Below, piece by piece: positions 20,818 to 60,283 of a stretch of DNA of 60,283 nucleotides. This stretch comes from a virus (lineage: Duplodnaviria > Caudoviricetes): the IMG/VR virus record IMGVR_UViG_3300017788_000995, positions 1 through 60,283 of that record; one strand, written 5' to 3'. The translations under genes were made by a program, and so were the position numbers. Numbering within the stretch: the stretch's first letter is position 1; every line of letters begins with the position of its first letter. The notes under the pieces are model-generated. The model saw nothing but the letters and a program-made list of their open reading frames with translations, had not been told where the DNA came from and did not search any database.

Positions 20818-21029
20818 ACAGGTAACTTTGGAGTTGCGGGAAGCAAGTTGATAGTTTCTCCCTCTGCTCTGATCTTTTCAATGATCGGTTTGGACAAATA
20901 CTTGGCTGCTTGCTCAGGATCAATCCTCATCTCGTCACACACGGCAAGAACACTTTCAATGTATCCATTCTTGTGCTTGGCGAGATGCTTTTCTAGGCGA
21001 TCAAGAAACTGCTTCTGTGTTACTAGCAA
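20814..21029 (-). CDS. gp33: Late transcription coactivator
   Basis: YIE.VL..C....ID.E...K..S..I.EKI..E....NLL; gene order. Confidence 0.85.
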   Translation of the reverse strand: MLVTQKQFLDRLEKHLAKHKNGYIESVLAVCDEMRIDPEQAAKYLSKPIIEKIRAEGETINLLPATPKLPV

Positions 21030-34982: not shown

Positions 34983-35239
34983 GCTGTTTCTCCTGTCTGT
35001 TTGAGTTCTTGAATACTAAGTTTAAGTCGTACACCGTCTTCAACCGCCTGATTGAAGCGATCAATGTTTGATGTTTTGGAGTTTAGAAGTTCCTTCACCA
35101 ATGCTTTATTTGCTACCGATGCACTCTCCAATGTATGTAGAATGAAATCGTGTGCGTTCTGTGTTAAACGAACACAGCGAGTTGGATTGTTGTTCCAATC
35201 CTTTGCCCATTCAAAGTTTGAGTCAAGGTTTGGCATCAT
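34979..35239 (-). CDS. Hypothetical protein
   Basis: ATGA overlaps at both ends. Confidence 0.65.
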
Positions 35240-41081: not shown

Positions 41082-41109
41082 ATTATATCATCGATCCAAG
41101 ATCAGTCAA
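41082..41109 (-). promoter_or_regulatory. Sigma70-like promoter TTGACT-N16-TATAAT, probably leaderless
   Basis: The -10 box is 6 nt upstream of ATG 41075; no RBS. Confidence 0.7.
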
Positions 41110-41143
41110 GCCAGTTAGTAGATTCTTTATAAACCAGGCATAC

Positions 41144-42184
41144 TCAGTCCTTCGATTCTACCATTCTCTGTAGAAAATCTGCAACTCTACGCATACTCAA
41201 CTGTTCGGGAAGACGGTTATCAACAAATATAGGCTCTTCTATCATCTTACGGCGGATAGATTCATCTGTGTCTATTGATGCGATTCTACTGCGAACTGCA
41301 CCCCAATCTATTGTCATCCAGTTTCCTACTTCGGATTCGTAATCATGGAGATTGATAAACGCCTTTGGATTCCATCCAAACTCAAGTATCTTTGGATTTC
41401 CCCAAAAGATAGGAATAGTTCCAGCGCAAAATGCGTGAGCAATCTTTTCTACTATCAAATGTGGAACGCAAACAAACTGAATTGCCAAAGAAAACTTGTA
41501 ATTGGACTCGAATAGTATTTTTTGGCGTATTGATATGCCGTCTGGTCTATTTCGATAAATTTGCTTGAAAGCATCCCTATTCACTCCACTTTCACTTTCG
41601 TTGATGTTATTTGCAAATCCACCGGCTCCGTCTATTTGTTTGTACTTGCACAATTCTTCATATGCAGCAATTCTATGCGGAGGTTTAGACGCCTGAACTA
41701 CAGAACAAAATCTAACATTTCTTTTGGATATCAACTCGTAGTCTCTACTCAAAAGCCATTGCGTTGGTTCGTCCGTTATCATTGCTTCATCGTATATTGC
41801 CCAAATATCCTGAGCAACTGATGCTTGTTGTAAATAGCGAGAATGCTCAACTGGAGCATTACAAATTCCCCACATATTTGGTAGTCTTACAGATCCAATA
41901 CAATCAGCCCATTCTCCACTATAGAATAGGAACTTCTTTGATGGATGAGTCGCGGGATCATATGATATTTGTGGAGTAGGAATTCCCAGTTCCATAGTCA
42001 ACCAAGAATCTGGCTCAGATCCATGATAGAGCGAAGAATGTATCACTATATCAGGATCATACGGGTCTACAATAACATTATAATGCATCCCTAAGCATCG
42101 TTTGAAGTATGACAATACATAGTTCATACAACTTGAAGCGAACCCCTGTCTAGTGATTTTGATTGTATTGGTTATTGGTTTCAT
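41144..42184 (-). CDS. Alpha-1,3-fucosyltransferase-like protein (GT10)
   Basis: FCS.V, YKFSLA....EKI..AF.AGTIPIFWG, NPKAFIN. Confidence 0.85.
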   Translation of the reverse strand: MKPITNTIKITRQGFASSCMNYVLSYFKRCLGMHYNVIVDPYDPDIVIHSSLYHGSEPDSWLTMELGIPTPQISYDPATHPSKKFLFYSGEWADCIGSVRLPNMWGICNAPVEHSRYLQQASVAQDIWAIYDEAMITDEPTQWLLSRDYELISKRNVRFCSVVQASKPPHRIAAYEELCKYKQIDGAGGFANNINESESGVNRDAFKQIYRNRPDGISIRQKILFESNYKFSLAIQFVCVPHLIVEKIAHAFCAGTIPIFWGNPKILEFGWNPKAFINLHDYESEVGNWMTIDWGAVRSRIASIDTDESIRRKMIEEPIFVDNRLPEQLSMRRVADFLQRMVESKD

Positions 42185-42207
42185 AAATTGTTCTCCTATT
42201 ACTGAAT

Positions 42208-42939
42208 TTACAGATCAAGTGGGAGCGAGTTGCAAGCATCAGTTAGTTTGATGGTTTCGTTTCCCCAAGGTCCATTGTCGTGAACAATAAACGCTGACGA
42301 TTGTATTCCTATTGGAATATCTTTCTCAACAAGAGTTTTATGCTTGGACAGATGTGTGCTGAAAAACAATCTCTGTTCTGCATCTAATACGATGTCTGCT
42401 TTTTTCAAAAGATACAAATTCGTCCATATTGCTTGATCGTCATATGGTGTCATCAGAAATTCATTATTTACTGCCTCTTCAAGAGCAGAAATAATAGATT
42501 TGGTTTTTCCTATCATGCAACCTGAGTTTAAATAACGATACTCGCTATCTGTAGGAGAAGAATTGTACAGGTGACTATATGGTGTTGGTGGCCACATTCC
42601 TTTTTCGGCACACATCACTATGTCACAGTTGAAAGAAAGATACTCTCTCAATAATCCATCCGCTCTTCTCAGAAAATTAGTATCCAATGCGTCTAGAAAA
42701 AGAGTATATTCGTACTTATGTAATACCGATTTCAAATACTCTAAGTGTTTATTAATTTTGAACCACGCCAGTTTAGAGTATAAACTAACTTCTCCATTGG
42801 GAGGAGGAGATGCAGCAGTATCGTATCTCTGAACATGAATGTCTTCGGGTAAGATACCACCCGCAGCACATCTTTCATAGAAAGTAGGCTGATAATACGA
42901 TGGATAATCGAAAAGAACAGTTGTTACAAGTAGACTCAT
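42208..42939 (-). CDS. PLOD-like (lysyl hydroxylase GT domain) glycosyltransferase
   Basis: LFLDALD, AEKGMWP, RYLNSG.MIG, DDQ, LD..QRLF, HDNG. Confidence 0.78.
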   Translation of the reverse strand: MSLLVTTVLFDYPSYYQPTFYERCAAGGILPEDIHVQRYDTAASPPPNGEVSLYSKLAWFKINKHLEYLKSVLHKYEYTLFLDALDTNFLRRADGLLREYLSFNCDIVMCAEKGMWPPTPYSHLYNSSPTDSEYRYLNSGCMIGKTKSIISALEEAVNNEFLMTPYDDQAIWTNLYLLKKADIVLDAEQRLFFSTHLSKHKTLVEKDIPIGIQSSAFIVHDNGPWGNETIKLTDACNSLPLDL

Positions 42940-42941
42940 GG

Positions 42942-43712
42942 TTAAAACTTCAATAGTGATGTTTCTCTATACTTTGGAAGGAACTCATAGTAGTTATTCA
43001 TAATTCCTAAAGGGATTAGAGCAGTCTTCATCTTTGCTACTACTGTAGACATACCAATCTCTACTCCCTCTGCAAATGTCCATATGTTTTCTTGCTGAGA
43101 TTTTGTGTATAGCATATTCCAGTATTCGCAGAAAGCACCAAGTTTTTGATTGTTCGCAAATACCATATACTGTTCGTTGCATACATGGGCATTATCAAAC
43201 TCAGAAGTATTCATCAATCCATAGGCATCAATTTTATGCTTCCAAAAACATCCCGAAGGGTTATGTTTTCCTGATCCTATTTCATGTGGGCGCTCAAACA
43301 GAAAATCAACTTCCATTTCTGACATCTGCTGTAGAACTCTCAAAACACCATCTTCCGAATACTCGGATCTAACTTTCCAATCTGCGTCGCAAAAGATGAT
43401 ATAGTCTGCATCTATGATGTTGTGTGTTTTTGCTATAGGTCTGTGCTTTATATTGTAGTTGAATCCAAATTCATTGAATGCACCTCTAGAGTCGAATCCA
43501 GGCGGAGCATTGAATGCATCATCGTCTGACTCCAATAGATCAAATGTGATTTTTGGAGATGTGTTAGTTATACTAGAAAATGCAGATGGATTTGTAGTAA
43601 TCACAGAACCATGACAGTTTGGATACGAAACAACTTTCGTATGAAACTCTATTGCTTGTTTCAAATACGATTCACCTACTGCAACAGTACAATATGCATA
43701 AGATGGAATCAA
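42942..43712 (-). CDS. Putative GT-A glycosyltransferase
   Basis: TVAVG..Y, IIFCDAD (DxD), EG.EIG; lies within the GT cluster. Confidence 0.55.
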   Translation of the reverse strand: MIPSYAYCTVAVGESYLKQAIEFHTKVVSYPNCHGSVITTNPSAFSSITNTSPKITFDLLESDDDAFNAPPGFDSRGAFNEFGFNYNIKHRPIAKTHNIIDADYIIFCDADWKVRSEYSEDGVLRVLQQMSEMEVDFLFERPHEIGSGKHNPSGCFWKHKIDAYGLMNTSEFDNAHVCNEQYMVFANNQKLGAFCEYWNMLYTKSQQENIWTFAEGVEIGMSTVVAKMKTALIPLGIMNNYYEFLPKYRETSLLKF

Positions 43713-44362
43713 GATATCTTTCTCCTACACACCCAAACAGCCTTGCTAAACTGTTCGTCCATAAAAGGAACCAATCCATTATTAGAGCAAGTATCGTATA
43801 TATTATCATCAGTTATCTCACACCAGTTCCACAAAACCCCACGAATGGTTTGCTCAAATACATCTTTGCTTGAAGCATAATCATGTGCCATGATAATGTC
43901 TCCTACCTTTAGATGTGGTGCAATTTCTTTGAACTCTTCTACCTTTGCTCCACCATCACAAAGAACAATAGAAACACCATCCTGTCTAACAAATGAAATA
44001 GCATCTTCTATGATACCATCTCTAACATTATGGTCGTTTTTCCAAATACTCTGAGTTCTAAAATCTGCAATTCCCTGCTTTTGTAGATCATCAAACCACT
44101 CTCTTCTGTAAATGTCATAGGTAAGAATCTCTATTGGGATGAAATTGTCATCTGCTACAGTTTTGAGGAACCATGTAAATCCTCCTAGTGCAGTTCCAAT
44201 TTCGAGAATTCTTTTAGGTCTAACTACAGATAGCAATTCTGCAAAAGCATACGGTGCATAATGATTTTGCTGCGCCGCGTGCCCGTTTATAGTTATCAAT
44301 CCCTGATTGTTTTTGAGATCAGGAGGAATAATAGTATACTTGTCTAGGTTTGATTGTGTCAT
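43709..44362 (-). CDS. Class I SAM-dependent methyltransferase (CmcI-like, probable sugar O-MTase)
   Basis: RPKRILEIGT..GG, CDGG, L..GD....HD. Confidence 0.8.
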   Translation of the reverse strand: MTQSNLDKYTIIPPDLKNNQGLITINGHAAQQNHYAPYAFAELLSVVRPKRILEIGTALGGFTWFLKTVADDNFIPIEILTYDIYRREWFDDLQKQGIADFRTQSIWKNDHNVRDGIIEDAISFVRQDGVSIVLCDGGAKVEEFKEIAPHLKVGDIIMAHDYASSKDVFEQTIRGVLWNWCEITDDNIYDTCSNNGLVPFMDEQFSKAVWVCRRKIS

Positions 44363-45990
44363 CCTGCATTTTCCTTTCGATGCGATCCATCATAATGAAA
44401 TGCTCGGTTGTGGTTGATAGGACTGGCTAGCAGACATCCTGCTTTGATCTTTCCTTCTGATATCTGCTGATGCACATGACTCATCCATGTTTGCTCATAT
44501 GGATGCGCCCATTTGGTGTCTAGGAATACTTTGCGACTACCTGCTTTATTGAACATCACAGGCCAGTTGCAGTAGTGAAATTCTCCTACTGCATACGAAA
44601 GTCCATCAACAGACCCCGTATGAGTTATCTTGGTTCTGTTGCACACACCCTTGATCTGTGATCCTGGAAAGTACTGCTCTTTCTTATCAGATGGAAGATT
44701 GTGCCAAGACCAATTCAAATGGTTATCGCCAAAGAATTCCGTAAAGGATAGTTTCAGGTAGTCAAGAGATTCCTTTTCCATGATACTCATGCATTTCTGA
44801 AACAGTCTTGGATCGTATCGTATCAATCCATTCTTACAAGGTTCTTCGTCTTTGCCACAAAGCATCATATCGTCTTCAAAGAACACCATGTATTCGTGGT
44901 CAGATTCATCAAACATCTCAGCGCACAGTTGTCTAGCACCACATATTCCTAGATTCTCTGGCTTTCTTATCTCTTGAAATGAATGCTTTTTGCAAAGAGC
45001 AGCGAACTCACCGTCAGTTGATAGGTCTGTTGAATTGTTGATTACATACTTGGAAGAGTATTTGAAAACTGAGTCGTGGTTGCGAGTAGAATCTAACCAA
45101 AGCCTGTATTGTGCAGGGATATTAAAGCACACAGAGTATACACCAAGTTTGCTATTGTTTGTTCTTTCTCTTGGCTTGCTAAGAATCTTCTCTATCCACG
45201 GAGCAATCAATCCGTTTGCTCCAATCATCTGATAGTTGCACAGATCAGGGTAGTTGTAAGTGAGCAATGTAAAAATGCTCTCTTCAGTACCCATCAGTCT
45301 TTTACTCAAACTGTCTGCAAGATATGCGTAGTAGTGATTGTTGAGTTTGTTTATCGTATCTTTAGTTCCGCCGAACAGTCCTCCTCGTGCAACTCTATTT
45401 ACATTCACTCCGCGAGCAAACTCATTCATCTTAGAGGCAACAAATCCGTGGATTTCTCCTTCTGCATCGTATGGAAAACACAAAAACAAGGCAGCATCTT
45501 CCATGTACTTGACTACTTCGGATTCAAACCTCGCACCAAGCAGTCCATCCCATACGGTGTTGCTTATACCTCCGTCTAACCACAAGAAATACTTGGTGTT
45601 GTGCGGATTAATTAGTGTCGTATCATTCAACCAAAAGAACTTCGACATTACAAGCGGATTGTATAACTCCAATCTCGCTTGCGTACTTTCTTCTAGCCAA
45701 GACTTTTGCGTGAACCACGCAGGATCAGTTCTGATAGACTGAATCTGATCGTAGAATGGCATCTTTCTCAGGTCATCTGCACTAACATGGCGTATGGTAG
45801 TATTCGATCTATCGCGGTATTGCCAGACAAAATCCTCCAAATCAGGACTTATGAAAAGCACCATTGGGCATTTCACCGCAGTCAGCAGTTTGGAAAAGCA
45901 TTCCTTGTAGTGATCGAACGAGCGAGAAAAAGAAGTTCCTATTTCTCCTCTACCAATGTTGACAAGGCCACTAACAATAGTCAATGACAT
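44359..45990 (-). CDS. HtrL/YibB-like glycosyltransferase fused to a GT2-like domain
   Basis: TIVSGL.NIGR, YN.LVMSK, WLDGG, GG.FGG, TEE; second domain with FFEDD. Confidence 0.75.
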   Translation of the reverse strand: MSLTIVSGLVNIGRGEIGTSFSRSFDHYKECFSKLLTAVKCPMVLFISPDLEDFVWQYRDRSNTTIRHVSADDLRKMPFYDQIQSIRTDPAWFTQKSWLEESTQARLELYNPLVMSKFFWLNDTTLINPHNTKYFLWLDGGISNTVWDGLLGARFESEVVKYMEDAALFLCFPYDAEGEIHGFVASKMNEFARGVNVNRVARGGLFGGTKDTINKLNNHYYAYLADSLSKRLMGTEESIFTLLTYNYPDLCNYQMIGANGLIAPWIEKILSKPRERTNNSKLGVYSVCFNIPAQYRLWLDSTRNHDSVFKYSSKYVINNSTDLSTDGEFAALCKKHSFQEIRKPENLGICGARQLCAEMFDESDHEYMVFFEDDMMLCGKDEEPCKNGLIRYDPRLFQKCMSIMEKESLDYLKLSFTEFFGDNHLNWSWHNLPSDKKEQYFPGSQIKGVCNRTKITHTGSVDGLSYAVGEFHYCNWPVMFNKAGSRKVFLDTKWAHPYEQTWMSHVHQQISEGKIKAGCLLASPINHNRAFHYDGSHRKENAG

Positions 45991-46005
45991 GGTATCTCCA
46001 ATGCA

Positions 46006-47334
46006 TCAATACCCGATGCTTACTGGCTGTTCGATTCTGTTTAACCAACCCTTGCTCTTGCTGTGAGGCCATATCACAAACTTGCTTGGAGCAGAATCCA
46101 TCTTTGCAGTAAACACAACTGCAAGTCTTGAATATCCTTCTCTCAACTCGTCGTTCGGTTTGATTGATCTGTTCCACATCAGAGGTCTAGTATCTGGCTT
46201 AAAGTCTTCTCTCCACAGAGTATCATTTGCGTCATTGTGAATCGCGCATACCACAAAATCAAGATCATCTGCCTGATGGAAGTTCTTGGGTTCCCATGTC
46301 AGCAAAGTAGCAAACCTACCCTCACCGTCAGGCAGTGTTTCTGCTCTTCGCTTAAAGTCTAATTTGGAATATGCTTCGTACTCTGCCAAGGTTCTGACAG
46401 TTCCGATTCCGTACTTTCCAAACACAATGTTCGGATCTGTCTCCATCTCAAACAGCACTCGATTTCGATGGTGACAGATGTTGTTGCGCTCTACCCAGTT
46501 CATACCATCTACAAGTTTATTCTTGTTTTGATCGGTATGATCTACCCAATGCTTATGAGTTCTATACTCGCGGGTATACTCGTGCCAAACAACATTTCGG
46601 TGCGGGGAAAACAGATCATAACCGTGCGTGAAAGAACGCATTGCAAGAGAAATCTCTTCTCCGTGGAAGTAATAGTTTGGATCGTGGGGAACTTCTCGTA
46701 CCATGTCTCCGATGGTGAAGGCAAAGTGAGCAGAGAAAAATCTACACGGTACGGGAGAAGTCAACTCCGCAAAGCCTTTTCCATTTCCTGCCCAGAAGTT
46801 AGTACCGTCAATGTAGTGTGGTTTGAAGAATACGCATCCTTCGGGGGTAAAACGGTCAAACTCCAAGTACAAAGCATGATTCGTTTCTAGCAGATCGTCA
46901 TGCTGCCTACCGCGATGCTTTTCGGGATTGAATGGTGTTGCATAAGCGGTGAGAATGGGTTTCTTGTGTCCCTTGGCTTGCAAGTCTTTGATCCAACCGA
47001 TCAAAGTCTCGTCCCAATCTTGTGCAAATCTGTGGTGAGAATCCAGTTGTATAGTGTACTCTTCTCCTCCATACAACTGCTCTTGGATAGAGTTACGCGC
47101 CCAACACGCTCCTCTGCTTTGATGCCACGGCACATCAATGATCTTGAAGCGAGGATCGTTCTTGAACTCTTGCAGTTCAGCGTCCCACGGGTCATTTGGT
47201 TCATGCTGCCAGCAGATTCCAAAGCGCAACCGCTCAGGATGTTTGGCCTTGTCTAAGCAATCCTTAATGGTGGGAACCAGTTCAGGATCACGGTATGCTG
47301 CAATCTGAAGGAAAATGCGTTCATCGCTTGCCAT
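46006..47334 (-). CDS. GT60-like polypeptide/hydroxyproline alpha-GlcNAc transferase (Skp1 Gnt1 family)
   Basis: IFLQIAAYRDPE, RG.CWAR, QLDSH.RF..WD, AHFAF, VPHDP...F.GEE...R..THGYD..P....WH.Y. Confidence 0.85.
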   Translation of the reverse strand: MASDERIFLQIAAYRDPELVPTIKDCLDKAKHPERLRFGICWQHEPNDPWDAELQEFKNDPRFKIIDVPWHQSRGACWARNSIQEQLYGGEEYTIQLDSHHRFAQDWDETLIGWIKDLQAKGHKKPILTAYATPFNPEKHRGRQHDDLLETNHALYLEFDRFTPEGCVFFKPHYIDGTNFWAGNGKGFAELTSPVPCRFFSAHFAFTIGDMVREVPHDPNYYFHGEEISLAMRSFTHGYDLFSPHRNVVWHEYTREYRTHKHWVDHTDQNKNKLVDGMNWVERNNICHHRNRVLFEMETDPNIVFGKYGIGTVRTLAEYEAYSKLDFKRRAETLPDGEGRFATLLTWEPKNFHQADDLDFVVCAIHNDANDTLWREDFKPDTRPLMWNRSIKPNDELREGYSRLAVVFTAKMDSAPSKFVIWPHSKSKGWLNRIEQPVSIGY

Positions 47335-47656
47335 TCTGTACTCTCTCTTTCTCTTTCAAGTAAGCACTCAACAGAACCATGTAGTTGATTACATCAACAC
47401 AAGTATCCATAAAACTCTCATTGGAAACATGAAGTTTGCCAGACTCAACAAACGAACTGAGTCTACTCATCTTGTCTGTAAGACGAACCAAGAACCCCTG
47501 CTCGGTGGAGCAGATGCCCATTGATTCTACTCTTGTAAAGTTTGCGAACGGTTCTAGACCGTCATTGCCTGCGTAGTCTCGGTTCTTCGCATCCATAAGG
47601 GTGCGGCCGCTATCACAGATTTCTTTGTGCCATGCCAATAGTTCATCACGGGTCAT
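47321..47656 (-). CDS. DUF1599 / nucleotide-modification-associated domain protein
   Basis: KN.DY....ANF...G..VRL.DK..RL....ES..DT..D..NY. Confidence 0.75.
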   Translation of the reverse strand: MTRDELLAWHKEICDSGRTLMDAKNRDYAGNDGLEPFANFTRVESMGICSTEQGFLVRLTDKMSRLSSFVESGKLHVSNESFMDTCVDVINYMVLLSAYLKEKERVQNGKR

Positions 47657-48197: not shown

Positions 48198-48872
48198 TTA
48201 CTGTACTGTAATTGGAATCAACTCATTGAAAACTTGTATGTGGGTAGGAGCAAGCGGCGTGTCTGTTAGACTCTGCCACTTGTTTTGGCTTTGTCTGTCT
48301 GCTGATTGAATGAACATCGGAGTTGGTGCAGCGATTACCTTGAACTTCTGCTGTGCTGCGGCAAATCCATTATCCATAGGAATTCTCTTGGAGTACAGAC
48401 ACATATGAGCAATCTCTGCTGCATACTGTCTATACTGTTCACTCACATAAAGAACGGCGTGTGCTGCAAGCATACCAAAGATTCTATACCAACCATTGTT
48501 CAAGTCAACAATTGCTTGCTTTTTATTTCCATGAGAGATTCCCAAATATACTGCATCTGTATCATCGGGTATAGAGATCATGGGGCGAAACGCCGAGGTT
48601 GACAGCGCATCGTCCTCCAGTATCAGAACTGGTGAATTGTTCACAGAGTATAATGCATCTATGTGCGCCTGTCCGCATCCCATATAGTGTTTGCCAAACG
48701 CTCTGAGTCTGACTGAAGACAGGTCTTTTGGTGGTGGAATGATTCTGCCTGGGATTCGCTGATGAGAAACAAATCCCAAACGATCAAATTGCTCGGTCAT
48801 TTGCTTGGCATTTGTAGTGGCACGATCTAGATTGATCCATCTAGTTTGTACATTACGAAGGTCGATTTCCAT
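48198..48872 (-). CDS. GT25-like glycosyltransferase
   Basis: INL.R, GC..AH, LILEDD, YLG, AHA..Y. Confidence 0.75.
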   Translation of the reverse strand: MEIDLRNVQTRWINLDRATTNAKQMTEQFDRLGFVSHQRIPGRIIPPPKDLSSVRLRAFGKHYMGCGQAHIDALYSVNNSPVLILEDDALSTSAFRPMISIPDDTDAVYLGISHGNKKQAIVDLNNGWYRIFGMLAAHAVLYVSEQYRQYAAEIAHMCLYSKRIPMDNGFAAAQQKFKVIAAPTPMFIQSADRQSQNKWQSLTDTPLAPTHIQVFNELIPITVQ

Positions 48873-52610: not shown

Positions 52611-53463
52611 CCTCGACTAGATTTCTCATCTTATGTTCCATCAAGTACGAAAGGATATTACCTTTACGGGCCGGAGTGGAGTCTGCATACCTTTGCAGAA
52701 TGGATTGCTCCAACTCCACAGGTATATATCTGAAATCAACCATGCATCGGTTACGATCCCAGTTTCTTTTCACTTTGTCTGGCATAGTTGCTATAACATC
52801 AAACCGATTACCCACGACAAGAATCTGTTCTTGAATAGCAGCAGACTTCTTGCCAGTGAGAGGAGTCTGTCGCTTACCGTCAGTAACGAAACAATCGTCA
52901 TCGGACAGGATGTTAGGGATGCCGTCACCTGAGTCACCACTCAAGATATGATTCACCAAGAACTCGGTTGGATTCTTACATACCACAAATCCTTTCGTCA
53001 CAGGACTCCATTGCCGAACATTCGGGTAAATCTGCAACTGCTGAAAGTCTTTGTCGCTAGACACAATGATAACCTGTTCGTTAGCAGAGGTGTGCTTGGT
53101 CAGAGTGGCGATCACATCGTCTGCCTCTGCTCCCTGCACTCGCATATGACGATACGGAAACACATCACGAATCTCTTCGCGGATTCCGTCAATCATTCCA
53201 TAAATCGCCTTCCAATCGACATCAGATGACGCCTTTGCCTTGGCTCTGTTCTGCTTGTACTGCGGAAACACAGAGTTACGCCAACACCTACCACCTTCGT
53301 GGCAGAGAACAATCTCGCCAGCGTCACGAAACTTCTGTCGATATGTGCGATAAATGTTCAGTACCGTATGGCGTAACAGGTCTTCTGAAAACTGGGCAGC
53401 ATCGCCTTTGGTAAGGGCGAATAGACTTCCCAACAGTACTTGGTTGTTGTCAATCAGAATCAT
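52594..53463 (-). CDS. rnh: T4-type RNase H / 5'-3' exonuclease
   Basis: MILID, WR...FP.YK..R, EADDVIA, SSDKDF.QL, GD.GDGIPN. Confidence 0.93.
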   Translation of the reverse strand: MILIDNNQVLLGSLFALTKGDAAQFSEDLLRHTVLNIYRTYRQKFRDAGEIVLCHEGGRCWRNSVFPQYKQNRAKAKASSDVDWKAIYGMIDGIREEIRDVFPYRHMRVQGAEADDVIATLTKHTSANEQVIIVSSDKDFQQLQIYPNVRQWSPVTKGFVVCKNPTEFLVNHILSGDSGDGIPNILSDDDCFVTDGKRQTPLTGKKSAAIQEQILVVGNRFDVIATMPDKVKRNWDRNRCMVDFRYIPVELEQSILQRYADSTPARKGNILSYLMEHKMRNLVEVVSEF

Positions 53464-54569
53464 TAGTAGGCTCCAATGAGAATACAGTTCTCATTGATTC
53501 TCCCGCTTATCTTTGTGGGTTTAGTCTTGATGGAGTTCATCGTGTTCTGCACAGCACGGACACCAGTAAGTTTACTCAGCATATCTTTTGGCTTGCGGAG
53601 TTTCTTGGATACAGACTTGTTTTCATCGTAGTTAATAATGGTGGTTCCCTTTACACTTAAGCCACGAGGATCTTTTGCAAACAGTACAGTTAGTGTACGG
53701 TACTTTTCGTTAAACACAACCACCATTTCACTACCAATGATCTTTTCTGGCGAGATACTTTTAATGTTGTATTCCTTAGACTCAACCAAGTACTTTACCT
53801 TTTTGGTGATTTGATTTGGACTCTTCTGCTTCTTCTTGCGAGGCTTACGATCTGATCGCTTCTCGTCAGCAAATGTGCGGAAAGCATTAGCCGTTTCTGA
53901 AAGTATTTGTATGAGTTTTTTGAGTCGAGGCCTGGTCAAGAAAGAATATCCCTCAACCAGTTGTTCATCTTTGCCGGCATATGCTGTTGTCATCTCTTGC
54001 AGATAGGCATTTTCAATGTATGCAGCAATTTTACCGCAATGTAATGCCTTGACTCCATGACTGGTTGCCCACCCCACAGGATCAAAATTCACCTCGCTCT
54101 TGCTCGTACAAGCGTCTACAACCGAATCCACAACCATATCAATATCACCCAAGTACTCACGGTACTTGTGTTCGATGCGCTCCTGAATGGACGGCAGAGC
54201 GGTATCCTGACGCTTGGCGAGGACGACAGAACCAGTTTGCTTCAGATCATCAATCTCCCGTGCAATCTTCTGTTTAGTTTCGTCTGGCAGCGGAGCGCCA
54301 CGAGTTAGCATTCGACACAAATAACCAATGCCAGCATAACTCTTGATGCCATTTTGTGCAATGCACTTGATTGTTTCAGCATCCATCTTGGAATGCTTGC
54401 AGTAGTCTAACACCCACCGCTTTTTGTCTCGGTTGGTGCCTTTATTCCAATACCAACCAATAGCCCGTTGGAGCGCAGAGTCTTGCTCATCTTTAGTAGC
54501 AAAAGACTCTGCGCTCCAAACTGGCTCAGAACCATAGGCTCGTTCTAGTGTTTTGTTGTAGTCTTTCAT
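53463..54569 (-). CDS. Conserved hypothetical protein of T4-like phages
   Basis: 368 aa. C-terminal SI.P.KIIG.....FN.K.R...VKGTT....D...S..K.LRKP...GRINE pattern. Confidence 0.7.
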   Translation of the reverse strand: MKDYNKTLERAYGSEPVWSAESFATKDEQDSALQRAIGWYWNKGTNRDKKRWVLDYCKHSKMDAETIKCIAQNGIKSYAGIGYLCRMLTRGAPLPDETKQKIAREIDDLKQTGSVVLAKRQDTALPSIQERIEHKYREYLGDIDMVVDSVVDACTSKSEVNFDPVGWATSHGVKALHCGKIAAYIENAYLQEMTTAYAGKDEQLVEGYSFLTRPRLKKLIQILSETANAFRTFADEKRSDRKPRKKKQKSPNQITKKVKYLVESKEYNIKSISPEKIIGSEMVVVFNEKYRTLTVLFAKDPRGLSVKGTTIINYDENKSVSKKLRKPKDMLSKLTGVRAVQNTMNSIKTKPTKISGRINENCILIGAY

Positions 54570-54578
54570 CGCATCGTA

Positions 54579-54606
54579 AGTATACGACGAATCGCATACG
54601 AGTCAA
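54579..54606 (-). promoter_or_regulatory. Sigma70-like promoter TTGACT-N16-TATACT
   Basis: Exact hexamers; ATG 9 nt downstream. Confidence 0.7.
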
Positions 54607-54607
54607 G

Positions 54608-55765
54608 TCACCCTACGAGTTTAGGTTCAAATACCTCATTCTTTGTAGATGGCGCCAAGTTTATAGTCTTGACAAGGCTACGAGAAAGGGCAATAACACC
54701 CGCGTATGGGTCTACATTGGCGCCTGGACGGCGATCTTCAATATACAGCAGATGTGCCGCATCCGTGTTCAGAGGAACAGCAGGCACACACAAAGATGTA
54801 GTACGATCACCAAATCCCCAAGTGAACTTGTTGAAGTCACTGATTCCGCCTGTCTTTCCAACTAGGCGTTGCTCGTTGCCCGCACCATATGCTGCCATAT
54901 GTTCGCGGTGATCTTCTCCAATGGTTTCGCAAATTGCCTTGGCGAGGCCTGCATTTCCGCTAGACTTGGTGTAATTGTCCATATACAGGCGGACGATGCA
55001 TCCGTTACCATTCCATTCTGTGCCAGGAAAACTCTTTGGCTGATAACTGATTACACACCGAGGGTTGTCTCGGTCTTCTGCCGTATCTTCCAATAGATAC
55101 CGCGAGATAATCAGATTATCGCAAGCAGTCAGCACATCTGTTTCTTCAGTAACAAATGACCACTGTGATAGGCAGATTCCTGCATTGTATGAATGCATTG
55201 CAATTCCTCTCCATACACATCGGTCGTAGAAAGAAGAAATCAGTTCTTTGCCTCGTTGAAAGTCGCCAGAACCACCATAGTACCTGCCTTGAGGACCAGG
55301 GAATACGACTTGGGTTTCTCCCTTTTCGTTCTTTCCAGTTGGCCAGCGATACGGTTGACGAGTATCAGGATCAATCAGTAGAACATCCTGCTCGAATCCA
55401 ATCTTTACGGAGGTCAGATCGTTTGTGCTGAGAAACTTGCGAAGGTCGGCACGGGCATTAGATGCATGAGGAGTTCCATCTGCGGTTTGCACTTCGCATA
55501 GTACAACACCACTATCGCGGGTAATACCCTCAAATCCAGTTGAATCCTTAACGGTACGAACTGGAACCAAGAACAGATCAGCGTTATCAGTTGATGCCTG
55601 CTTGCAAGCAGAACCATCGAATCGCTGTGTCTTGGGGGTTTCTCCAACTGAGGTGTAGTTAGCACTACGAATAGTACCATCACCAGCCAACCAAATGTAA
55701 GTCCAATCCATTACAACTGGCTTCGTCTCATCCTTTTTCACTTTCACATACTCACTCTTTGTCAT
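54608..55765 (-). CDS. Glutamine synthetase type II-like protein with a degenerate active site
   Basis: YIW..G, FDGS, LCEV, GFEQ, GPQG.YY, WNG.GC, YG.GN..RL.G, EDRRP..N.DPY. Several metal ligands are replaced. Confidence 0.88.
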   Translation of the reverse strand: MTKSEYVKVKKDETKPVVMDWTYIWLAGDGTIRSANYTSVGETPKTQRFDGSACKQASTDNADLFLVPVRTVKDSTGFEGITRDSGVVLCEVQTADGTPHASNARADLRKFLSTNDLTSVKIGFEQDVLLIDPDTRQPYRWPTGKNEKGETQVVFPGPQGRYYGGSGDFQRGKELISSFYDRCVWRGIAMHSYNAGICLSQWSFVTEETDVLTACDNLIISRYLLEDTAEDRDNPRCVISYQPKSFPGTEWNGNGCIVRLYMDNYTKSSGNAGLAKAICETIGEDHREHMAAYGAGNEQRLVGKTGGISDFNKFTWGFGDRTTSLCVPAVPLNTDAAHLLYIEDRRPGANVDPYAGVIALSRSLVKTINLAPSTKNEVFEPKLVG

Positions 55766-57399
55766 TATGATTTCTCCTTTGGTTTGTAAAACACATAAAC
55801 GGGTTCATACTTCATGTAGTCACCATCAATCTTGCAATAGTTTTTGCACATGGGCAATCCTGTTTTTTCGTCAAGACGATTCTGCCCAGGCATAGATTCC
55901 ATCGCCATCTTCACCTTGTATTTATACACGAGTCCAAACTCTTCAAGGAATCTTTGTGAATCTTTTTCAAGCGGAAGATAATCCCCACCAATCTGAATGT
56001 CTGCAATGTTCCATAGCAAGTAACGATCAGGCTTCAAGAACTCTGCACAAGTCTTCAGCGTTGGACGCAAAAATCCATCACGCCAACTCTCATATGATGA
56101 GCCGTACTTCTTATAGGATTGGTTCTCATCCTTTGAATAGGCTTCACGGTTGAAGTAAGGAGGACTTGTGAAGATCATGTCGATCTTACCTTTGTACTTC
56201 TTGAAACGAGGATCGTTGCCAATCTCTTCTGAACCTAGTCTATAAATTTCGTAGGTATTGGTTTCGCTGAAGAATGGATTGCCTCTGTATGTCTTGGTAT
56301 TGTAGAAATCTGCAACATCGGCATATCGAGAACGCTCCTCGCCCGTGTCTTCGTCAATGTAATACAGTTCGGGGTTTGGATCAGTTCCAATGTAATGAAT
56401 CTTGCGATCATCGCGCACACTCATGGCGCCAAGAATACGACCTCCCCATCCCGATGAAGGATCGTAGATCACAAGCGGAGTCTTCTGAGACTTGGCGTGT
56501 TCCGTAAACCGCTCATACAGATACTTGGCAGTCATGGGTGGGAAGTTGTGCGCCACTTGAATGTATCCGATACGGAATGCAGCAAATCCCTTCGGGAATA
56601 CGCGCTCACCTTTCTTGTAAATACGAATGGTGTACACGCGATCATCTGGCATGGCACTCACATCGAAAGTAGAGAAGTGTCGATACTGCAATACTCCCTC
56701 GTCCTTGAGTTGCTGCACCTGTTCTCGCGTGAGATTCAGAATGTCAGACTGATTCAGTTGGAAGTATCCTGTATTGTTGCCTTCACGAATCTTCACCTGT
56801 TCAAGCATGAAGTCGTAACCCTTGAAGATTTCCTTGTTGGTTTGGAATGCTTTGATCCAAGACGAGGCATCAGGCACAGACACAAGAGCAGGTTTAGGAT
56901 TGTTACGCAAGCACGACAGGGCGTGCATATACAGCGAGTCTCTGCGGAAGTGACGCATTGATCCCTTGACCATACGATCAAGAAACCGATCTTCTGCAAA
57001 CAGTTCGTAGATGGAATAGCCATCGTCCCGTTCGCTGTAGTTGATGCGAGTCTTCATCATGGTTGGAAACCATTGATCCACTTCAGAACCAAGCCTTGCC
57101 TTGTTCAGAATCACATCGTTGCCGATGTCTTCCAGTTCATCGTCAAACTCAAACGACTTCACAGGATACTCAGCCATCTTGTTCCACTCTTCAATGATGC
57201 CTTCTTCGATCTTTCCGATGCGCGGAGGACATCCCTTGTTGTCCCAAATATCGACAACTGCCTTACGCATATTGACAACCCACTCGCAGAACTTGTCTGC
57301 GTTCATCTCTAGCAATTCTTCAAAGGTGACATTTACTGGGTGAGTGAGGAGATGGGTGTTCTTCTCAAAAAAGGTTTTGTGTGCTTGTAGAGTTTCCAT
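55765..57399 (-). CDS. Large SAM-dependent DNA amino-methyltransferase-like protein
   Basis: YDPSSGWGGR (motif I), YIGTDPN, FTSPPYF (motif IV); N-terminal extension of about 280 aa. Confidence 0.8.
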   Translation of the reverse strand: METLQAHKTFFEKNTHLLTHPVNVTFEELLEMNADKFCEWVVNMRKAVVDIWDNKGCPPRIGKIEEGIIEEWNKMAEYPVKSFEFDDELEDIGNDVILNKARLGSEVDQWFPTMMKTRINYSERDDGYSIYELFAEDRFLDRMVKGSMRHFRRDSLYMHALSCLRNNPKPALVSVPDASSWIKAFQTNKEIFKGYDFMLEQVKIREGNNTGYFQLNQSDILNLTREQVQQLKDEGVLQYRHFSTFDVSAMPDDRVYTIRIYKKGERVFPKGFAAFRIGYIQVAHNFPPMTAKYLYERFTEHAKSQKTPLVIYDPSSGWGGRILGAMSVRDDRKIHYIGTDPNPELYYIDEDTGEERSRYADVADFYNTKTYRGNPFFSETNTYEIYRLGSEEIGNDPRFKKYKGKIDMIFTSPPYFNREAYSKDENQSYKKYGSSYESWRDGFLRPTLKTCAEFLKPDRYLLWNIADIQIGGDYLPLEKDSQRFLEEFGLVYKYKVKMAMESMPGQNRLDEKTGLPMCKNYCKIDGDYMKYEPVYVFYKPKEKS

Positions 57400-58322
57400 T
57401 ATGATTTCATTCTTTGCTGTACTTCAGTTTCACTAAGTCTGCGTCCAACCACCCAAAAGCAAGTACTCTTGTTTATGTCAAGGTTCTCGCGCATCCACTT
57501 GTGTGCCTTTGCTTCGTACAGATCGTCAAGGATTGTACCATCTGCTATCTTTTCCACAAGAGGTTTTCCGTACACAGTATTTAGACAATGTAGATCATAT
57601 TCTGGCAGCGGATATCCTGCCATTGGATTTACCCACTTGTTGATGTTCTCCGTTCGCTTTGGGCCAACACACAATCCGATCACTTTGCCCACGCTGATCT
57701 TATACCGATGTATACCTCGGAGAATGGCAGCAAAGTGAACTCCGCTTCCCACAGGAACAACCAATTGATCCAACTGGTTCGGTAGGTTGCCCACTTGACG
57801 CTCAATGCCATCAATGATTGCGTCTTCTCTGTTTTCAATGTTATGGGTAAAGACTGCATCGTACAGTTTTTCAGTCTTAGCGATCTCTCGCATTCTAGCA
57901 AGCACAGGACCGTGCATTCCTGTTCCACACACATTGCGAACATCTGCACCCAGCCACTTTGCGTATCGCATCATGTGGTGGTTGTCGATGGTTTCTGGCG
58001 AACTACCACCAATGCAAATCACGCAAGGAATATTCAAATCCTTACACACTCTGGCGATAATCGCTCCCGTTGTAGAATGAACCTGTGTGTGAGTCACTAC
58101 CCCATTGCTGTGTTCTTTGAGAACATTTCTTAGAGGATACAGCAAGCGAATGGCTTGTCTTACTTTGCCTCCGCTCACATCTTCAACCCCGTAGGGAGTG
58201 TACATATCATCACGCTTGTACCATATCCCCTTGATAAACTGCACGGGAGTGCGCGTCAGAACATGGGCAGGAAATGCTTTAGAAAAGTCATATTCCTGTT
58301 GCATATCAACCTGTTCTTTCAT
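57399..58322 (-). CDS. Fold-type II PLP-dependent enzyme (ACC deaminase/D-cysteine desulfhydrase-like)
   Basis: TPV...KRDD...GGKVR (PLP lysine), GA.V, VPVGSG (phosphate loop), LD.LYE.KA. Confidence 0.8.
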   Translation of the reverse strand: MKEQVDMQQEYDFSKAFPAHVLTRTPVQFIKGIWYKRDDMYTPYGVEDVSGGKVRQAIRLLYPLRNVLKEHSNGVVTHTQVHSTTGAIIARVCKDLNIPCVICIGGSSPETIDNHHMMRYAKWLGADVRNVCGTGMHGPVLARMREIAKTEKLYDAVFTHNIENREDAIIDGIERQVGNLPNQLDQLVVPVGSGVHFAAILRGIHRYKISVGKVIGLCVGPKRTENINKWVNPMAGYPLPEYDLHCLNTVYGKPLVEKIADGTILDDLYEAKAHKWMRENLDINKSTCFWVVGRRLSETEVQQRMKS

Positions 58323-58984
58323 AGTGGTAGTGTAGTCTTAGAGTGATTGAATTTTGGATCATAGAACTTCTCTTCCAGTTCGCATCCCCACCATCTGCGT
58401 CCAGTAGTGTTGGCAGCAAGCAGAACTGGGGCAACTCCTGCAAACGGATCGACAACCAAATCACCTGGCTCAGTAAGATTCTCAATCACATACTTGCAGA
58501 AGTTCTGCGACCACACAGACTGATTTAGTACCTTTTCCTGCTGATCCACATAGATGTCGCGCAGCCACTCTCCCTTGCGATGGATGACACCTTGACTTGT
58601 ATACACAAGCATATGTTGGAATGTGAAGTAGTACATATCACGCTTGCCTACTTCGTTTCTTACCACAATCTTGTAGTCTTTCAGGCGCAGTCCTTCGTTC
58701 TCTAGGCATTGCGCGTACCACATATGGTTGGACAGAATGAAACCGTTCACCCTACGATCAGTCTGACACACCACAACAAAGCCAGTAGGTTTCACAATAC
58801 GAGCAAACTCTCGCATTGCCTTCTGTTGAAATTGCCGATACGAGTCAGTTTCATCTTTACCAAACGGGGTCTGAGACAGGTCTGGGCAAGAAGTGAATAC
58901 TAGGTCTACGGATTCTGATGGAATGTTAGGCATATAATCAAATGCATCTCCCAACACATACGAGTTCTCTTGAAACTTTGTCAT
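58319..58984 (-). CDS. Small beta-class MTase-fold protein with an atypical catalytic motif
   Basis: SVDLVFTSCPD in place of TSPPY; GD.VVDPFAG...GRRW.GCE SAM-binding end. Confidence 0.75.
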   Translation of the reverse strand: MTKFQENSYVLGDAFDYMPNIPSESVDLVFTSCPDLSQTPFGKDETDSYRQFQQKAMREFARIVKPTGFVVVCQTDRRVNGFILSNHMWYAQCLENEGLRLKDYKIVVRNEVGKRDMYYFTFQHMLVYTSQGVIHRKGEWLRDIYVDQQEKVLNQSVWSQNFCKYVIENLTEPGDLVVDPFAGVAPVLLAANTTGRRWWGCELEEKFYDPKFNHSKTTLPL

Positions 58985-60283
58985 GGTGTAATCCTACTGA
59001 AGTTGTTCTTCTTCTCAAACGACATGGTGTGTTCAAACTTGTCTACCAACTGATCTGCCTTGTGAGAGATCACAAACACATTTGCGGTGATACCAAAAGA
59101 GTGGAGAATTTTCATAAACTCTTCGGTTCCTGCGGTGTCGAGCGATGAATCAAACACCTCGTCCAAAATGAGCAGATTAGTATTTGCGCTGTTCTTGATT
59201 CGTGCAATCTCACGCCACGCGAGAAGCAAAGCCAAATCAATACGCATCTTTTCACCCTCGCTGAAACTCATGTACGAGAAAGTGTCACGGTGTCTGCTCT
59301 TGATGGTTTCGTTGAACTCTTCATCAAGCGTAAAGTTGGCAAAGAAATCCATCGTGTTCAGATACTTATTGATGGTCTTGTTGATGATGGGTAGATAGTA
59401 GCGAATGATCTTTGCCTTGATACCGCTATCCTTCAATAGAGTTGCCGCTACGCTATAGTAGTGCATCTCTTCCACCAGGCTATTCTTGGAAGACTCGTTC
59501 TTGTTCAAGTCTCCCTCGAAATCCACCAATCTCTTCTGATGATCTGTGTCTTCAGTTTCCTTGCCCTGAATAGTCGTATTCTCTCTGCTGAGTTTACCGA
59601 TATACGAATTGCACGCCGTAATGGTGCTGTTCGCCTCCATCGTCTGTGTATTCAGAGATTCTAGTTCAGCAGATACCTCTTCATACTCTTCAATCTGAGT
59701 TCGCTTGGTTTCAATTTCGGTAACAATGGCACCGACTGCTTCGTTCAGTTCACCCTGCTTGCTTTTCTTCTTGCATAGTAACCCGTGAATAGGCTGACTA
59801 GCCTTGTCAATAGGTTGATAGCAGGTGGGACATACCTCATTGTCGTCAAAGAATGACAACTCTTCACCTACCTTTTTGCGATTGGACTCTAGTTGCTTAT
59901 GAAAGGTTTCTAGTTTAGTGATCTGCTTTAGCAAAGCAACCTTTCCTTGTAACTTGACCTTTACTTTCTGAATCTGCTCATTCAGGACAATCAGTTCTTC
60001 CTGCTTATCTTCAATCAACGATTCAGAGCGGGCGATCTCTTTCAGGTTTCCCTGTACCTGTTCATCACTTTTGCTCTTTAGTCCTACAATCAAGTCTTTC
60101 TGAGCGCGGATAGATTCTCGCAGAATAGCGATCTTGCGTTCGTTGTCTGCAATCTCTTCCTTGAGAGTAGACATCTTTGCCTTGAGAATGGTGTTCATGG
60201 TAGAGAACACATTGATATCAAGGATATCTTCGATCACAGCACGGCGATCTGAGGCAGGCAACTGCATGAATGGAACAAACGAA
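58981..60283 (-). CDS. gp46: Recombination endonuclease subunit (Rad50/SbcC-like), 5'-truncated by the window end
   Basis: FMQL....RR.VIED.LDI, CPTC zinc hook, FSEGEK.RIDLA signature, LILDE.FD, ISH. Confidence 0.95.
   Translation of the reverse strand, partial: SFVPFMQLPASDRRAVIEDILDINVFSTMNTILKAKMSTLKEEIADNERKIAILRESIRAQKDLIVGLKSKSDEQVQGNLKEIARSESLIEDKQEELIVLNEQIQKVKVKLQGKVALLKQITKLETFHKQLESNRKKVGEELSFFDDNEVCPTCYQPIDKASQPIHGLLCKKKSKQGELNEAVGAIVTEIETKRTQIEEYEEVSAELESLNTQTMEANSTITACNSYIGKLSRENTTIQGKETEDTDHQKRLVDFEGDLNKNESSKNSLVEEMHYYSVAATLLKDSGIKAKIIRYYLPIINKTINKYLNTMDFFANFTLDEEFNETIKSRHRDTFSYMSFSEGEKMRIDLALLLAWREIARIKNSANTNLLILDEVFDSSLDTAGTEEFMKILHSFGITANVFVISHKADQLVDKFEHTMSFEKKNNFSRITP

Follow-up and report, generated by a model that had tools for sequence, protein, structure and literature searches.

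A PLP enzyme and an altered methyltransferase-like protein are encoded as a pair in T4-like phages, with a possible role in DNA base hypermodification

The stretch of DNA analysed here (the window) is the whole of IMG/VR record IMGVR_UViG_3300017788_000995, 60,283 bases of a T4-like phage with an estimated completeness of 33%. It encodes, in adjoining genes, a fold-type II pyridoxal 5'-phosphate (PLP) enzyme, PLP307, and a small protein, MT221, that resembles the N4/N6 DNA methyltransferases. We conclude that these two genes form a real two-gene module and that the two genes following them, MT544 (an amino-methyltransferase) and GS385 (a glutamine synthetase homologue), are separate from it. 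PLP307 and MT221 are very probably coupled in function. What might that function be? We put forward, as a possibility somewhat short of probable, that they carry out late steps of an undescribed post-replicative hypermodification of DNA bases, off the known route through 5-hydroxymethyl-2'-deoxyuridine (5-hmdU) kinase 2 and amino acid:DNA transferase. An earlier note on this DNA had read the four genes as a single pathway. Its fold assignments for the four proteins hold (PF01555, PF00291, the methyltransferase motifs and the glutamine synthetase alignment), and the corrected picture has two or three genes of interest, not four.

To which family does PLP307 belong? It matches PF00291 at 47.2 bits (cut-off 35; E 2.5e-12) and phrog_3650 at E 1.4e-32, while the NCBIfam model ACC_deam_rel reaches only 2e-8. 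Its Schiff-base lysine, K53 in SGGKVRQA (58152-58175), is invariant in all 18 aligned homologues, as is G192 in the phosphate loop VGSGV (57738-57752), where G194 is nearly invariant. The family motif YEAKAHKWM lies at 57492-57518. The ratio of non-synonymous to synonymous substitution rates (dN/dS) is 0.075-0.155. An 18-sequence profile of PLP307 aligned over 261 columns (hhalign 99.8%, E 7e-29), with the lysines in register, to the 418-residue PLP protein of Shigella phage ChubbyThor (Ackermannviridae, ViI-like). We took this protein as the counterpart of ViI gp226, and the comparison was made with it rather than with gp226 itself. A sequence search of the PDB returned no solved PALP enzyme at E 0.1.

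Lee et al. (NAR 2021/2022, PMC8989533) demonstrated biochemically that ViI gp226 and M6 gp52 decarboxylate O-serinyl-thymidine and C-alpha-glycinyl-thymidine in DNA, amino acids that the bases already carry. With enzymes of this type PLP307 shares the lysine, the motifs KRDD..P..NG.K.RQA and QV.N.P and the YE.K...W and LFW.VG ends, over near full length, and like them it is encoded by a large virulent phage. It differs in being only 22-25% identical and about 110 residues shorter (307 against 418), and in having as its constant partner a methyltransferase-like protein with the motif S-x-P-D; the transferase and kinase families were not found alongside in the eight incomplete records searched. 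On sequence comparison, we conclude that PLP307 belongs to the same family as the ViI gp226-type PLP decarboxylases and is not close to the metabolic PALP enzymes, and the kinship that the earlier note had drawn with the ViI and M6 enzymes is thereby borne out.

MT221 matches PF01555 at 59.1 bits (cut-off 26.7), its residues 26-209 covering profile positions 1-217 of 221. The motif order is permuted, IV before I, and the cofactor side has the form DPF..G/GxE: motif I reads DPFAGVA (58427-58450) and the motif II glutamate is retained in GCELE (58373-58387). In place of (D/S)PPY, motif IV reads TSCPD (residues 31-35; TSCPDLSQ at 58871-58894). In the amino-methyltransferases (D/S)PPY holds the target amino group, and its aromatic residue stacks on the flipped base. 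Is the replacement peculiar to this copy? The SCPD that had been remarked on here recurs, in the general form S-x-P-D, in all of the best 120 of 587 family clusters at 90% identity, with x as L (59 clusters), P (41), C (17) or M (3). The extended form is S-x-P-D-(I/L)-S-Q, with one cluster reading ..PDLSK. Among 47 distinct sequences from the locus clusters 42 carry it, the other five being ordinary (D/S)PPY methylases merely co-clustered. Since the aromatic residue of motif IV is missing throughout the best 120 clusters, MT221 is no ordinary amino-methyltransferase.

An alignment of 11 sequences has 47 invariant columns. On the cofactor side D179, P180, F181, R196 and E202 are invariant, and the family has invariant blocks of its own, QTDRxxNG, NH and KDYKIxxRN. 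At 0.02-0.05, dN/dS is as low as that of the sliding clamp gp45. The 587 clusters were collected at E <= 1e-5, the best 120 all lying below 1e-97. The family is compact, with 29 representatives at E <= 1e-30 out of 1.84 billion searched, and small SPPD-bearing proteins, its looser relatives, reach down to about E 1e-18. The reachable relatives are IMG/VR viral contigs, and a structure search of the Atlas gave only 'DNA methylase domain' clusters. MT221 is like the beta-class N4C/N6A methyltransferases (M.PvuII 1boo, CcrM 6pbd, DpnA 5hfj, N4CMT 8s9n) in its whole-length match, permuted order and cofactor side. It differs from them in the aspartate at the aromatic position of motif IV, in its own invariant blocks and in its genomic tie to a PLP enzyme. 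We conclude that MT221, as judged from these alignments, descends from the N4C/N6A DNA methyltransferases, the cofactor-side residues D179, F181 and E202 having been kept and (D/S)PPY replaced family-wide. It looks like a constrained, altered enzyme with a changed substrate pocket, not a decaying gene.

Might MT221 instead be a dead pseudo-methyltransferase, a subunit whose task is to bind DNA or flip bases and so to guide PLP307 or MT544 to the target? Inactive methyltransferase paralogues are known to partner active ones. The altered motif IV and variable motif I, the very strong purifying selection, the tight linkage to the PLP gene with one fusion (described below) and the roughly 110 residues by which PLP307 falls short of the ViI-type enzyme would all suit such an adaptor. 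On the other hand, a pure adaptor would not need the cofactor-side D179, F181 and E202, which are invariant, and we regard this explanation as improbable.

How constant is the pairing? Two sets of loci were drawn from IMG/VR: a pattern scan with 18 PLP homologues gave 253 relatives, the best 80 of which were kept to yield 79 loci, and a reverse scan with 11 MT221-type sequences yielded 71 loci. A PLP gene stands beside the MT221-type gene in 60 of the 71 MT221 loci, in the order MT221>PLP in 29 and PLP>MT221 in 31. The gaps are mostly -42 to +35 nucleotides (nt) and are 0.5-2 kb in eight loci. Of the 11 loci with no adjoining PLP gene, 5 run off the contig on the side where it would be expected; the remaining six (L158, L159, L162, L163, L164, L165) are without one, which makes 6 of the 66 assessable. 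Seen from the other side, an MT221-type gene lies in the flank of 56 of the 79 PLP loci (best 80 of 253 relatives). The two genes remain neighbours in several genomic settings: directly downstream of gp46, behind gp45/gp44 plus a short MT544-type gene, in the interval from gp46 to CobT/CobS, or in a group of small open reading frames. In P0379, a single reading frame of 400 residues cut at its N-terminus, an MT221-type C-terminal half (E 8.6e-27) is fused to a domain of the PLP307 family (hhalign 97.3%, E 2.5e-11, 233 columns).

What else accompanies the PLP gene? In 8 loci (L086, L099, L100, L103-L106 and L109) a GNAT-like gene of about 149 residues directly follows it, in the place of MT221, and none of the 79 PLP loci has the GNAT-like gene and MT221 together. 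In about 25 loci, including L056-L058, L064-L066 and L084-L096, a protein of about 390 residues with an Asp/Asn beta-hydroxylase domain is encoded directly upstream. Genes of these two kinds are characteristic neighbours in adduct-sculpting clusters, and we count them in favour of hypermodification. Neither the GNAT-like nor the hydroxylase-like gene is in the window. Short MT544-type genes (340-440 residues) also occur near the PLP gene in these combinatorial neighbourhoods of the relatives.

Two high-GC metagenomic proteins carry a degenerate MT221-like domain that lacks S-x-P-D. In P0455 (623 residues) it is fused to an Asp/Asn-hydroxylase domain; in P0404 (677 residues) it stands with ParB-like, PLP-fragment and second methyltransferase parts. 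P0404 was considered as a second PLP-MT221 fusion and dropped, its PLP match being a 55-column C-terminal fragment (90%) and ParB-like and second methyltransferase parts being present. In L011/L041, which are the same contig, about 970 bases separate gp46 from MT221 in contrast to the 4-nt overlap of the window, which suggests an inserted gene.

The features of the window region are collected in table 1. The source phage, uncultured and aquatic, is T4-like by its gp43, gp44/62, gp45, gp46, UvsX, gp41, gp61, gp32, gp59, RNase H, baseplate and tail proteins. In the phage collection its DNA polymerase finds the best matches among marine single-cell viruses and cyanomyoviruses, none above 48.8% identity. 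Blastn of the 4.4-kb region against the 50,697 phage records gave no match; that set contains no close relative in culture.

Table 1. Features of the gp46-GS385 region of the window, in order of transcription.
Feature	Positions	Strand	Remarks
gp46, SbcC/Rad50-like recombination nuclease subunit	58981-60267	minus	phrog_77, E 4.8e-102; upstream neighbour of MT221 and translationally coupled to it; context only
MT221, small beta-class N4/N6 DNA-methyltransferase-like protein, 221 aa	58319-58984	minus	PF01555; member of the core pair
PLP307, fold-type II PLP enzyme, 307 aa	57399-58322	minus	PF00291; member of the core pair
MT544, amino-methyltransferase, 544 aa	55765-57399	minus	motifs I and IV; separately conserved gene of the phage lineage
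GS385, derived type II glutamine synthetase homologue, 385 aa	54608-55765	minus	in the operon, outside the PLP/MT221 module
sigma-70-like site, TTGACT-16 nt-TATACT	54579-54606	minus	sole intergenic gap; downstream of GS385, upstream of the 368-aa gene; 10/12 matches

The four genes follow gp46 with an overlap at every junction, as had been reported: ATGA (4 nt) between gp46 and MT221 and between MT221 and PLP307, TAATG (1 nt) between PLP307 and MT544 and between MT544 and GS385. A gap of 38 nt follows GS385. Does such spacing imply a shared pathway? Overlaps of 1 or 4 nt occur at 15 of the 54 same-strand neighbour pairs in the window (crude longest-reading-frame gene calls), the run takes in gp46 itself, and the junction between the 368-residue gene and rnh overlaps too. 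What the overlaps demonstrate is thus a tight operon; they do not establish that its genes share a pathway. On its strand the sigma-70-like site downstream of GS385 scores best, and the operon may have its 3' limit there. Over the whole region 10 such sites were counted against 12.0 +/- 3.4 in shuffled sequence, no more than chance supplies, so the site is a lead only.

Does MT544 belong with the pair? Its motifs are canonical and in the order I then IV: DPSSGWGGR (residues 313-321; 56437-56463) and FTSPPYF (residues 410-416; 56152-56172), both invariant in all 17 aligned homologues. It matches PF01555 at 30.9 bits (cut-off 26.7) over the motif IV half. The AlphaFold2 model has a mean predicted local distance difference test score (pLDDT) of 86, and the closest structures are the m2G transfer RNA amino-methyltransferases aTrm11, TrmN and Trm14 (Z 14.9-15.3, 181-183 residues aligned, root-mean-square deviation 2.6-3.2). 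With the whole model Foldseek found only generic class I methyltransferases (template-modelling score to the query 0.22-0.28), and a PDB sequence search gave nothing at E 1. The N-terminal 280 residues folded alone (pLDDT 72) had a best Z of 4.8 in a wide structure search, with none at Z >= 5. In the Atlas this region matched only unnamed viral clusters with scores of at most 0.82, and no known fold. Matches as weak as these, over 270-280 residues, are no proof of a new fold.

We found 28 MT544 loci. In the 10 that are complete over the region, all close relatives, the four genes stand in order, as they do in L049, L055 and L072, which are more distant. In 16 other distant loci (47-68% identity) the retrieved flank contains neither MT221 nor PLP; gp46 runs straight, or nearly so, into MT544 in 12 of them, and MT544 is followed by a glutamine synthetase homologue in 5. 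A 123-kb record, 68% complete, encodes MT544 and glutamine synthetase and neither PLP nor MT221 anywhere. All five long related records have an MT544-family gene. Between the window and marine relatives (loci L019-L034) MT544 is 63-68% identical, against 42-45% for gp46, 39-47% for RNase H and 49-53% for gp45, which is unusually high for an orphan methyltransferase. Taken alone, MT544 is most simply read as an orphan amino-methyltransferase that has been well conserved; it is also a candidate for the first step of a modification route. Do the four genes stay together? The close relatives keep all four in order and PLP adjoins MT221 in 60 of 71 loci, but MT544 and glutamine synthetase occur independently of the pair, an outcome that the earlier note had itself named as speaking against its pathway. 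The four are not one co-inherited cassette. In L018/L003, again one contig, the MT544 match spans 1631 bases, no multiple of three, and the best tblastn segment covers residues 267-544 only; a frameshift or a sequencing error is possible.

And what of GS385? It aligns end to end with the plant type II glutamine synthetase 4is4 (E 6.9e-47). Plant residues E192, E199, H249, E297 and R316 are replaced by G196, S203, I257, G306 and C326 (numbering from the alignment), E131 has become D127, and the equivalents of D56, E129, R291, R311, E330 and R332 are kept. We take the metal ligands to be E129, E131, E192, E199, H249 and E330 in plant numbering, and the flap glutamate to be among the replaced positions. 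Of these six ligand positions, GS385 keeps E129 and E330, has aspartate for E131 and has lost the other three. It scores 168.7 bits against the NCBIfam model GlnII (NF041605; cut-off 500) and 21.6 against Pfam Gln-synt_C (cut-off 24). It is thus like the type II enzymes (2d3a/4is4) in its end-to-end alignment and six kept positions, and unlike them in the five replacements, the aspartate at E131 and a score far below the GlnII cut-off. In a 20-sequence alignment the marine phage homologues (L049, L055, L072, L020, L023, P0125-P0128) and the cellular GlnII enzymes keep all five residues, with the motifs NAEVM..QWE(Y/F)Q, G.G.H.NFS, G(K/E)(H/N)E and S(I/V)RIP. The loss is limited to the window's own clade (16 database clusters at >=59% identity, then a drop to 38%), whose members differ in their replacements. 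The dN/dS of 0.09-0.19 (Nei-Gojobori, six relatives, several dS values exceeding 1) indicates purifying selection. From the catalytic losses, the low GlnII score and this selection together we conclude that GS385, by its alignment, derives from an auxiliary glutamine synthetase and is now a decayed auxiliary gene encoding a pseudoenzyme or a protein with a new role. As a pseudoenzyme it may act on host nitrogen control. Among the marine phage enzymes, which include L020:9600-11093, L023:9599-10996, P0125 and P0128, some have an N-terminal extension of about 100 residues with a thioredoxin/glutaredoxin-like CGWC motif.

The full four-gene pathway, a spelled-out form of the earlier proposal in which MT221 or MT544 would add a SAM-derived (S-adenosylmethionine-derived) amino-acid adduct, PLP307 would trim it and GS385 would extend it through an ATP-dependent amide bond, has in its favour the translational coupling of the four genes and the order kept in the 10 complete close relatives and L049, L055 and L072. 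An amide ligase that extends a DNA adduct has a precedent in CmoY (PMC12783734). Yet five catalytic positions of GS385 are gone, three of the six metal ligands among them, and the replacements vary within the clade; the homologues in L049, L055 and L072 are canonical glutamine synthetases; glutamine synthetase stands with MT544 in 5 loci that have neither MT221 nor PLP and is missing from all 31 PLP>MT221 loci; and MT544 is found alone. As a decayed copy that is absent from those 31 loci, GS385 is unlikely to extend a DNA adduct, and the four-gene pathway as a whole is very improbable.

To our knowledge, the amino-acid-derived DNA hypermodifications worked out so far all start from 5-hydroxymethyl-uracil and use a kinase and an amino acid:DNA transferase. 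Are these partners present? In the window and seven related T4-like records, 24-75% complete, neither PF18724 (ADDT, the amino acid:DNA transferase) nor PF18747 (HMUD2, the 5-hmdU kinase 2) scored above its cut-off (0 of 8 incomplete records; the HMUD1 and dUMP hydroxymethylase families were not searched). The positive control phage gave 207 bits for ADDT and 527 bits for HMUD2, and hmmscan places HMUD2 (527.8 bits) and ADDT (205.4 bits) in the ChubbyThor control record a few genes from the PLP gene. The window encodes ThyX (PF02511, 164 bits), the thymidylate synthase seen there, and dUTPase (PF00692). On both counts, the usual partners not visible and ThyX with dUTPase present, the earlier note was correct. 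SpeD (PF02675) was found in none of five long records, with or without a PLP gene. The open-access papers and preprints searched contained no description of a pair of an S-x-P-D methyltransferase-like protein and a gp226-type PLP enzyme, and none of a 3-amino-3-carboxypropyl (acp) or aminopropyl base in phage DNA.

The nearest parallel in logic is in the cyanophage S-B43 of Synechococcus (Nat Commun 2025, PMC12783734). There CmoA makes carboxy-SAM, CmoX, a C5-cytosine methyltransferase fold with SPPC and R350, transfers the carboxymethyl group, and CmoY, an asparagine-synthetase-like ligase, adds glycine. The logic is the one proposed here, a methyltransferase fold moving a non-methyl group from a SAM-type cofactor, an adjoining enzyme that supplies or processes it, and then tailoring. 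The families are different: MT221 has a beta-class fold of N4/N6 type and carries S-x-P-D, PLP307 is a PLP enzyme, and the glutamine synthetase fold of GS385 is without its catalytic residues. None of the window proteins scanned matched a C5-methyltransferase Pfam model; no search was aimed at CmoA.

How might the observed folds, motifs, family relationship, linkage, purifying selection and absence of the known partner families fit together? In RNA modification TYW2 and Tsr3 demonstrate that a methyltransferase-type SAM site can deliver the acp group, and in the wybutosine pathway acp transfer is followed by a 2-oxoglutarate hydroxylase and methyltransferases. The hydroxylase/PLP/methyltransferase-like neighbourhoods of the relatives resemble that pathway, whose substrates are RNA. 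We suggest that an MT544-type enzyme would install the side chain as the first step, its source being most economically the acp group of SAM, given that only SAM-binding enzymes surround PLP307. PLP307 would remove the carboxyl group from this alpha-amino-acid side chain on DNA and leave a primary amine. MT221 would then act with or after PLP307 as a tailoring enzyme, methylating or otherwise capping the new amine, and in some phages GNAT would take its capping place. The nested distribution (the MT544 family in every record examined, PLP in most, MT221 in fewer, GNAT replacing MT221) favours the order MT544, PLP, then MT221 or GNAT. Because the PLP gene is common without MT221 and the reverse is rare, MT221 probably acts with or after PLP307, and the opposite order, in which MT221 installs and PLP307 trims, is weakened.

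The strength of this proposal differs from part to part. It is from the sequences that we infer the order of the steps, DNA as substrate and the SAM origin of the adduct. That DNA is the target of the pair seems to us evenly balanced. A SAM-derived aminoalkyl adduct on DNA is a speculative suggestion, and the fullest version is unlikely: that widespread uncultured marine and freshwater T4-like phages place SAM-derived acp on the exocyclic amine of A, C or G, decarboxylate it with PLP to 3-aminopropyl and cap it with the S-x-P-D methyltransferase or GNAT.

Several observations weigh against hypermodification. The PLP gene stands without MT221 in 23 of the 79 loci, two of which break off at the PLP gene, and likewise in three long records with completeness of 70%, 75% and 95%. 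The PLP enzyme must therefore have a function independent of MT221, and no installer was found in those phages. All the related records are incomplete, so that absence of the transferase and kinase families is not proven. Motif I of MT221 varies among the best 120 clusters (FAGSG 56, FAASG 36, FAGVG 11, FAGVA 5), and with the window copy reading FAGVA where FxGxG is canonical its cofactor binding is uncertain. The nested gene distribution would be explained just as well by a PLP enzyme whose SAM-derived product, a cofactor or metabolite, is used by MT221. The pair's region also carries auxiliary metabolic genes (CobS, a CobT-like gene, peptide deformylase and glutamine synthetase), and the adjacency may in part be inherited synteny.

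The main rival is a small-molecule explanation, in which PLP307 would decarboxylate a free amino-acid/nucleoside conjugate, most plausibly SAM in the manner of the pyruvoyl enzyme SpeD, and MT221 would take the product as cofactor or substrate, perhaps to transfer aminopropyl groups. Where a phage has only PLP, or PLP and GNAT, the effect would be to reshape host SAM and polyamine pools, and DNA would be unmodified, or aminopropylated only where MT221 is present. GNATs acetylate polyamines. Such chemistry would account for the asymmetry between the two genes (MT221 lacks PLP in only 6 of 66 loci), for the auxiliary metabolic genes and for the failure to find a DNA-adduct installer of the ADDT or HMUD2 type in the eight records. 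The family's known substrates (PMC8989533) are amino acids tethered to a nucleoside, a description that SAM fits too. But MT221 derives from DNA amino-methyltransferases (PF01555) and lies among replication and recombination genes and other DNA methyltransferases, in one locus with a ParB_N protein and a C5 DNA methyltransferase, and the sole characterised relatives of PLP307 act on DNA. SpeD is absent from the long records whether or not PLP is present; there is no pattern of replacement, and the result is uninformative for a SAM decarboxylase. We give this explanation a low but appreciable probability.

Could there be nothing special to explain? MT221 and MT544 would then be ordinary orphan anti-restriction methyltransferases, PLP307 and GS385 unrelated auxiliary metabolic genes, and their proximity due only to the hyperplastic nature of the stretch from gp46 to rnh in T4-like genomes. 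MT544 has fully canonical motifs and occurs alone, the window holds two further N6_N4 methyltransferases, short overlaps are common in it, and glutamine synthetase is an intact auxiliary gene in relatives. The phylogeny points the same way and is a further mark against hypermodification. In a quick maximum-likelihood tree of 58 distinct PLP sequences of at least 240 residues (duplicates and reading frames missed by the gene caller left out) each arrangement is essentially one clade, with 1 change for MT221>PLP and 1 for PLP>MT221. The independent events behind the 60 linked loci are thus few. Against coincidence stand the aromatic residue missing from motif IV in all of the best 120 MT221 clusters, an adjacency that has outlasted a reversal of the gene order and several exchanges of flanking genes, the one fusion, and the fact that PLP307 is specifically near the DNA-acting phage enzymes and not the metabolic PALP family. 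We hold this explanation unlikely.

If the hypermodification proposed here were real in its full form, it would be the first amino-acid-derived DNA modification without a 5-hydroxymethylpyrimidine and the first acp or aminopropyl transfer to DNA. A member of the ViI-type PLP family has in any case been found without the ADDT and HMUD2 families in the eight incomplete records, its partner being a SAM-fold protein whose active site has been rebuilt. Should the pair act on DNA, it would represent a new entry route into hypermodification and would bear on phage resistance to restriction and CRISPR, on nanopore and SMRT reading of aquatic viromes and on DNA-labelling enzymes.

Elsewhere in the window, two tandem overlapping N6_N4-type DNA methyltransferase genes (35236-36453 and 36450-37811; 405 and 453 residues) lie between DNA polymerase and UvsX, each with a large insert between the two halves of its Pfam match; methyltransferase-fold genes number four in the 60 kb. 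Past GS385 a 368-residue protein (53463-54569) matches phrog_11903 at E 2.6e-69 and no Pfam or NCBIfam model; in many relatives it adjoins RNase H. At about 41100-47400 is an island of glycosyltransferase type (GT10-like, PLOD-GT-like, HtrL/YibB, GlcNAc-transferase) with a Methyltransf_24 protein, the lowest-GC part of the window (0.37-0.41). Its target may be host glycan, virion or DNA. Further glycosyltransferase genes outside the island, GT2, GT11 and another glucosyltransferase-like, are at 21001-22152, 25340-26242 and 48198-48872.

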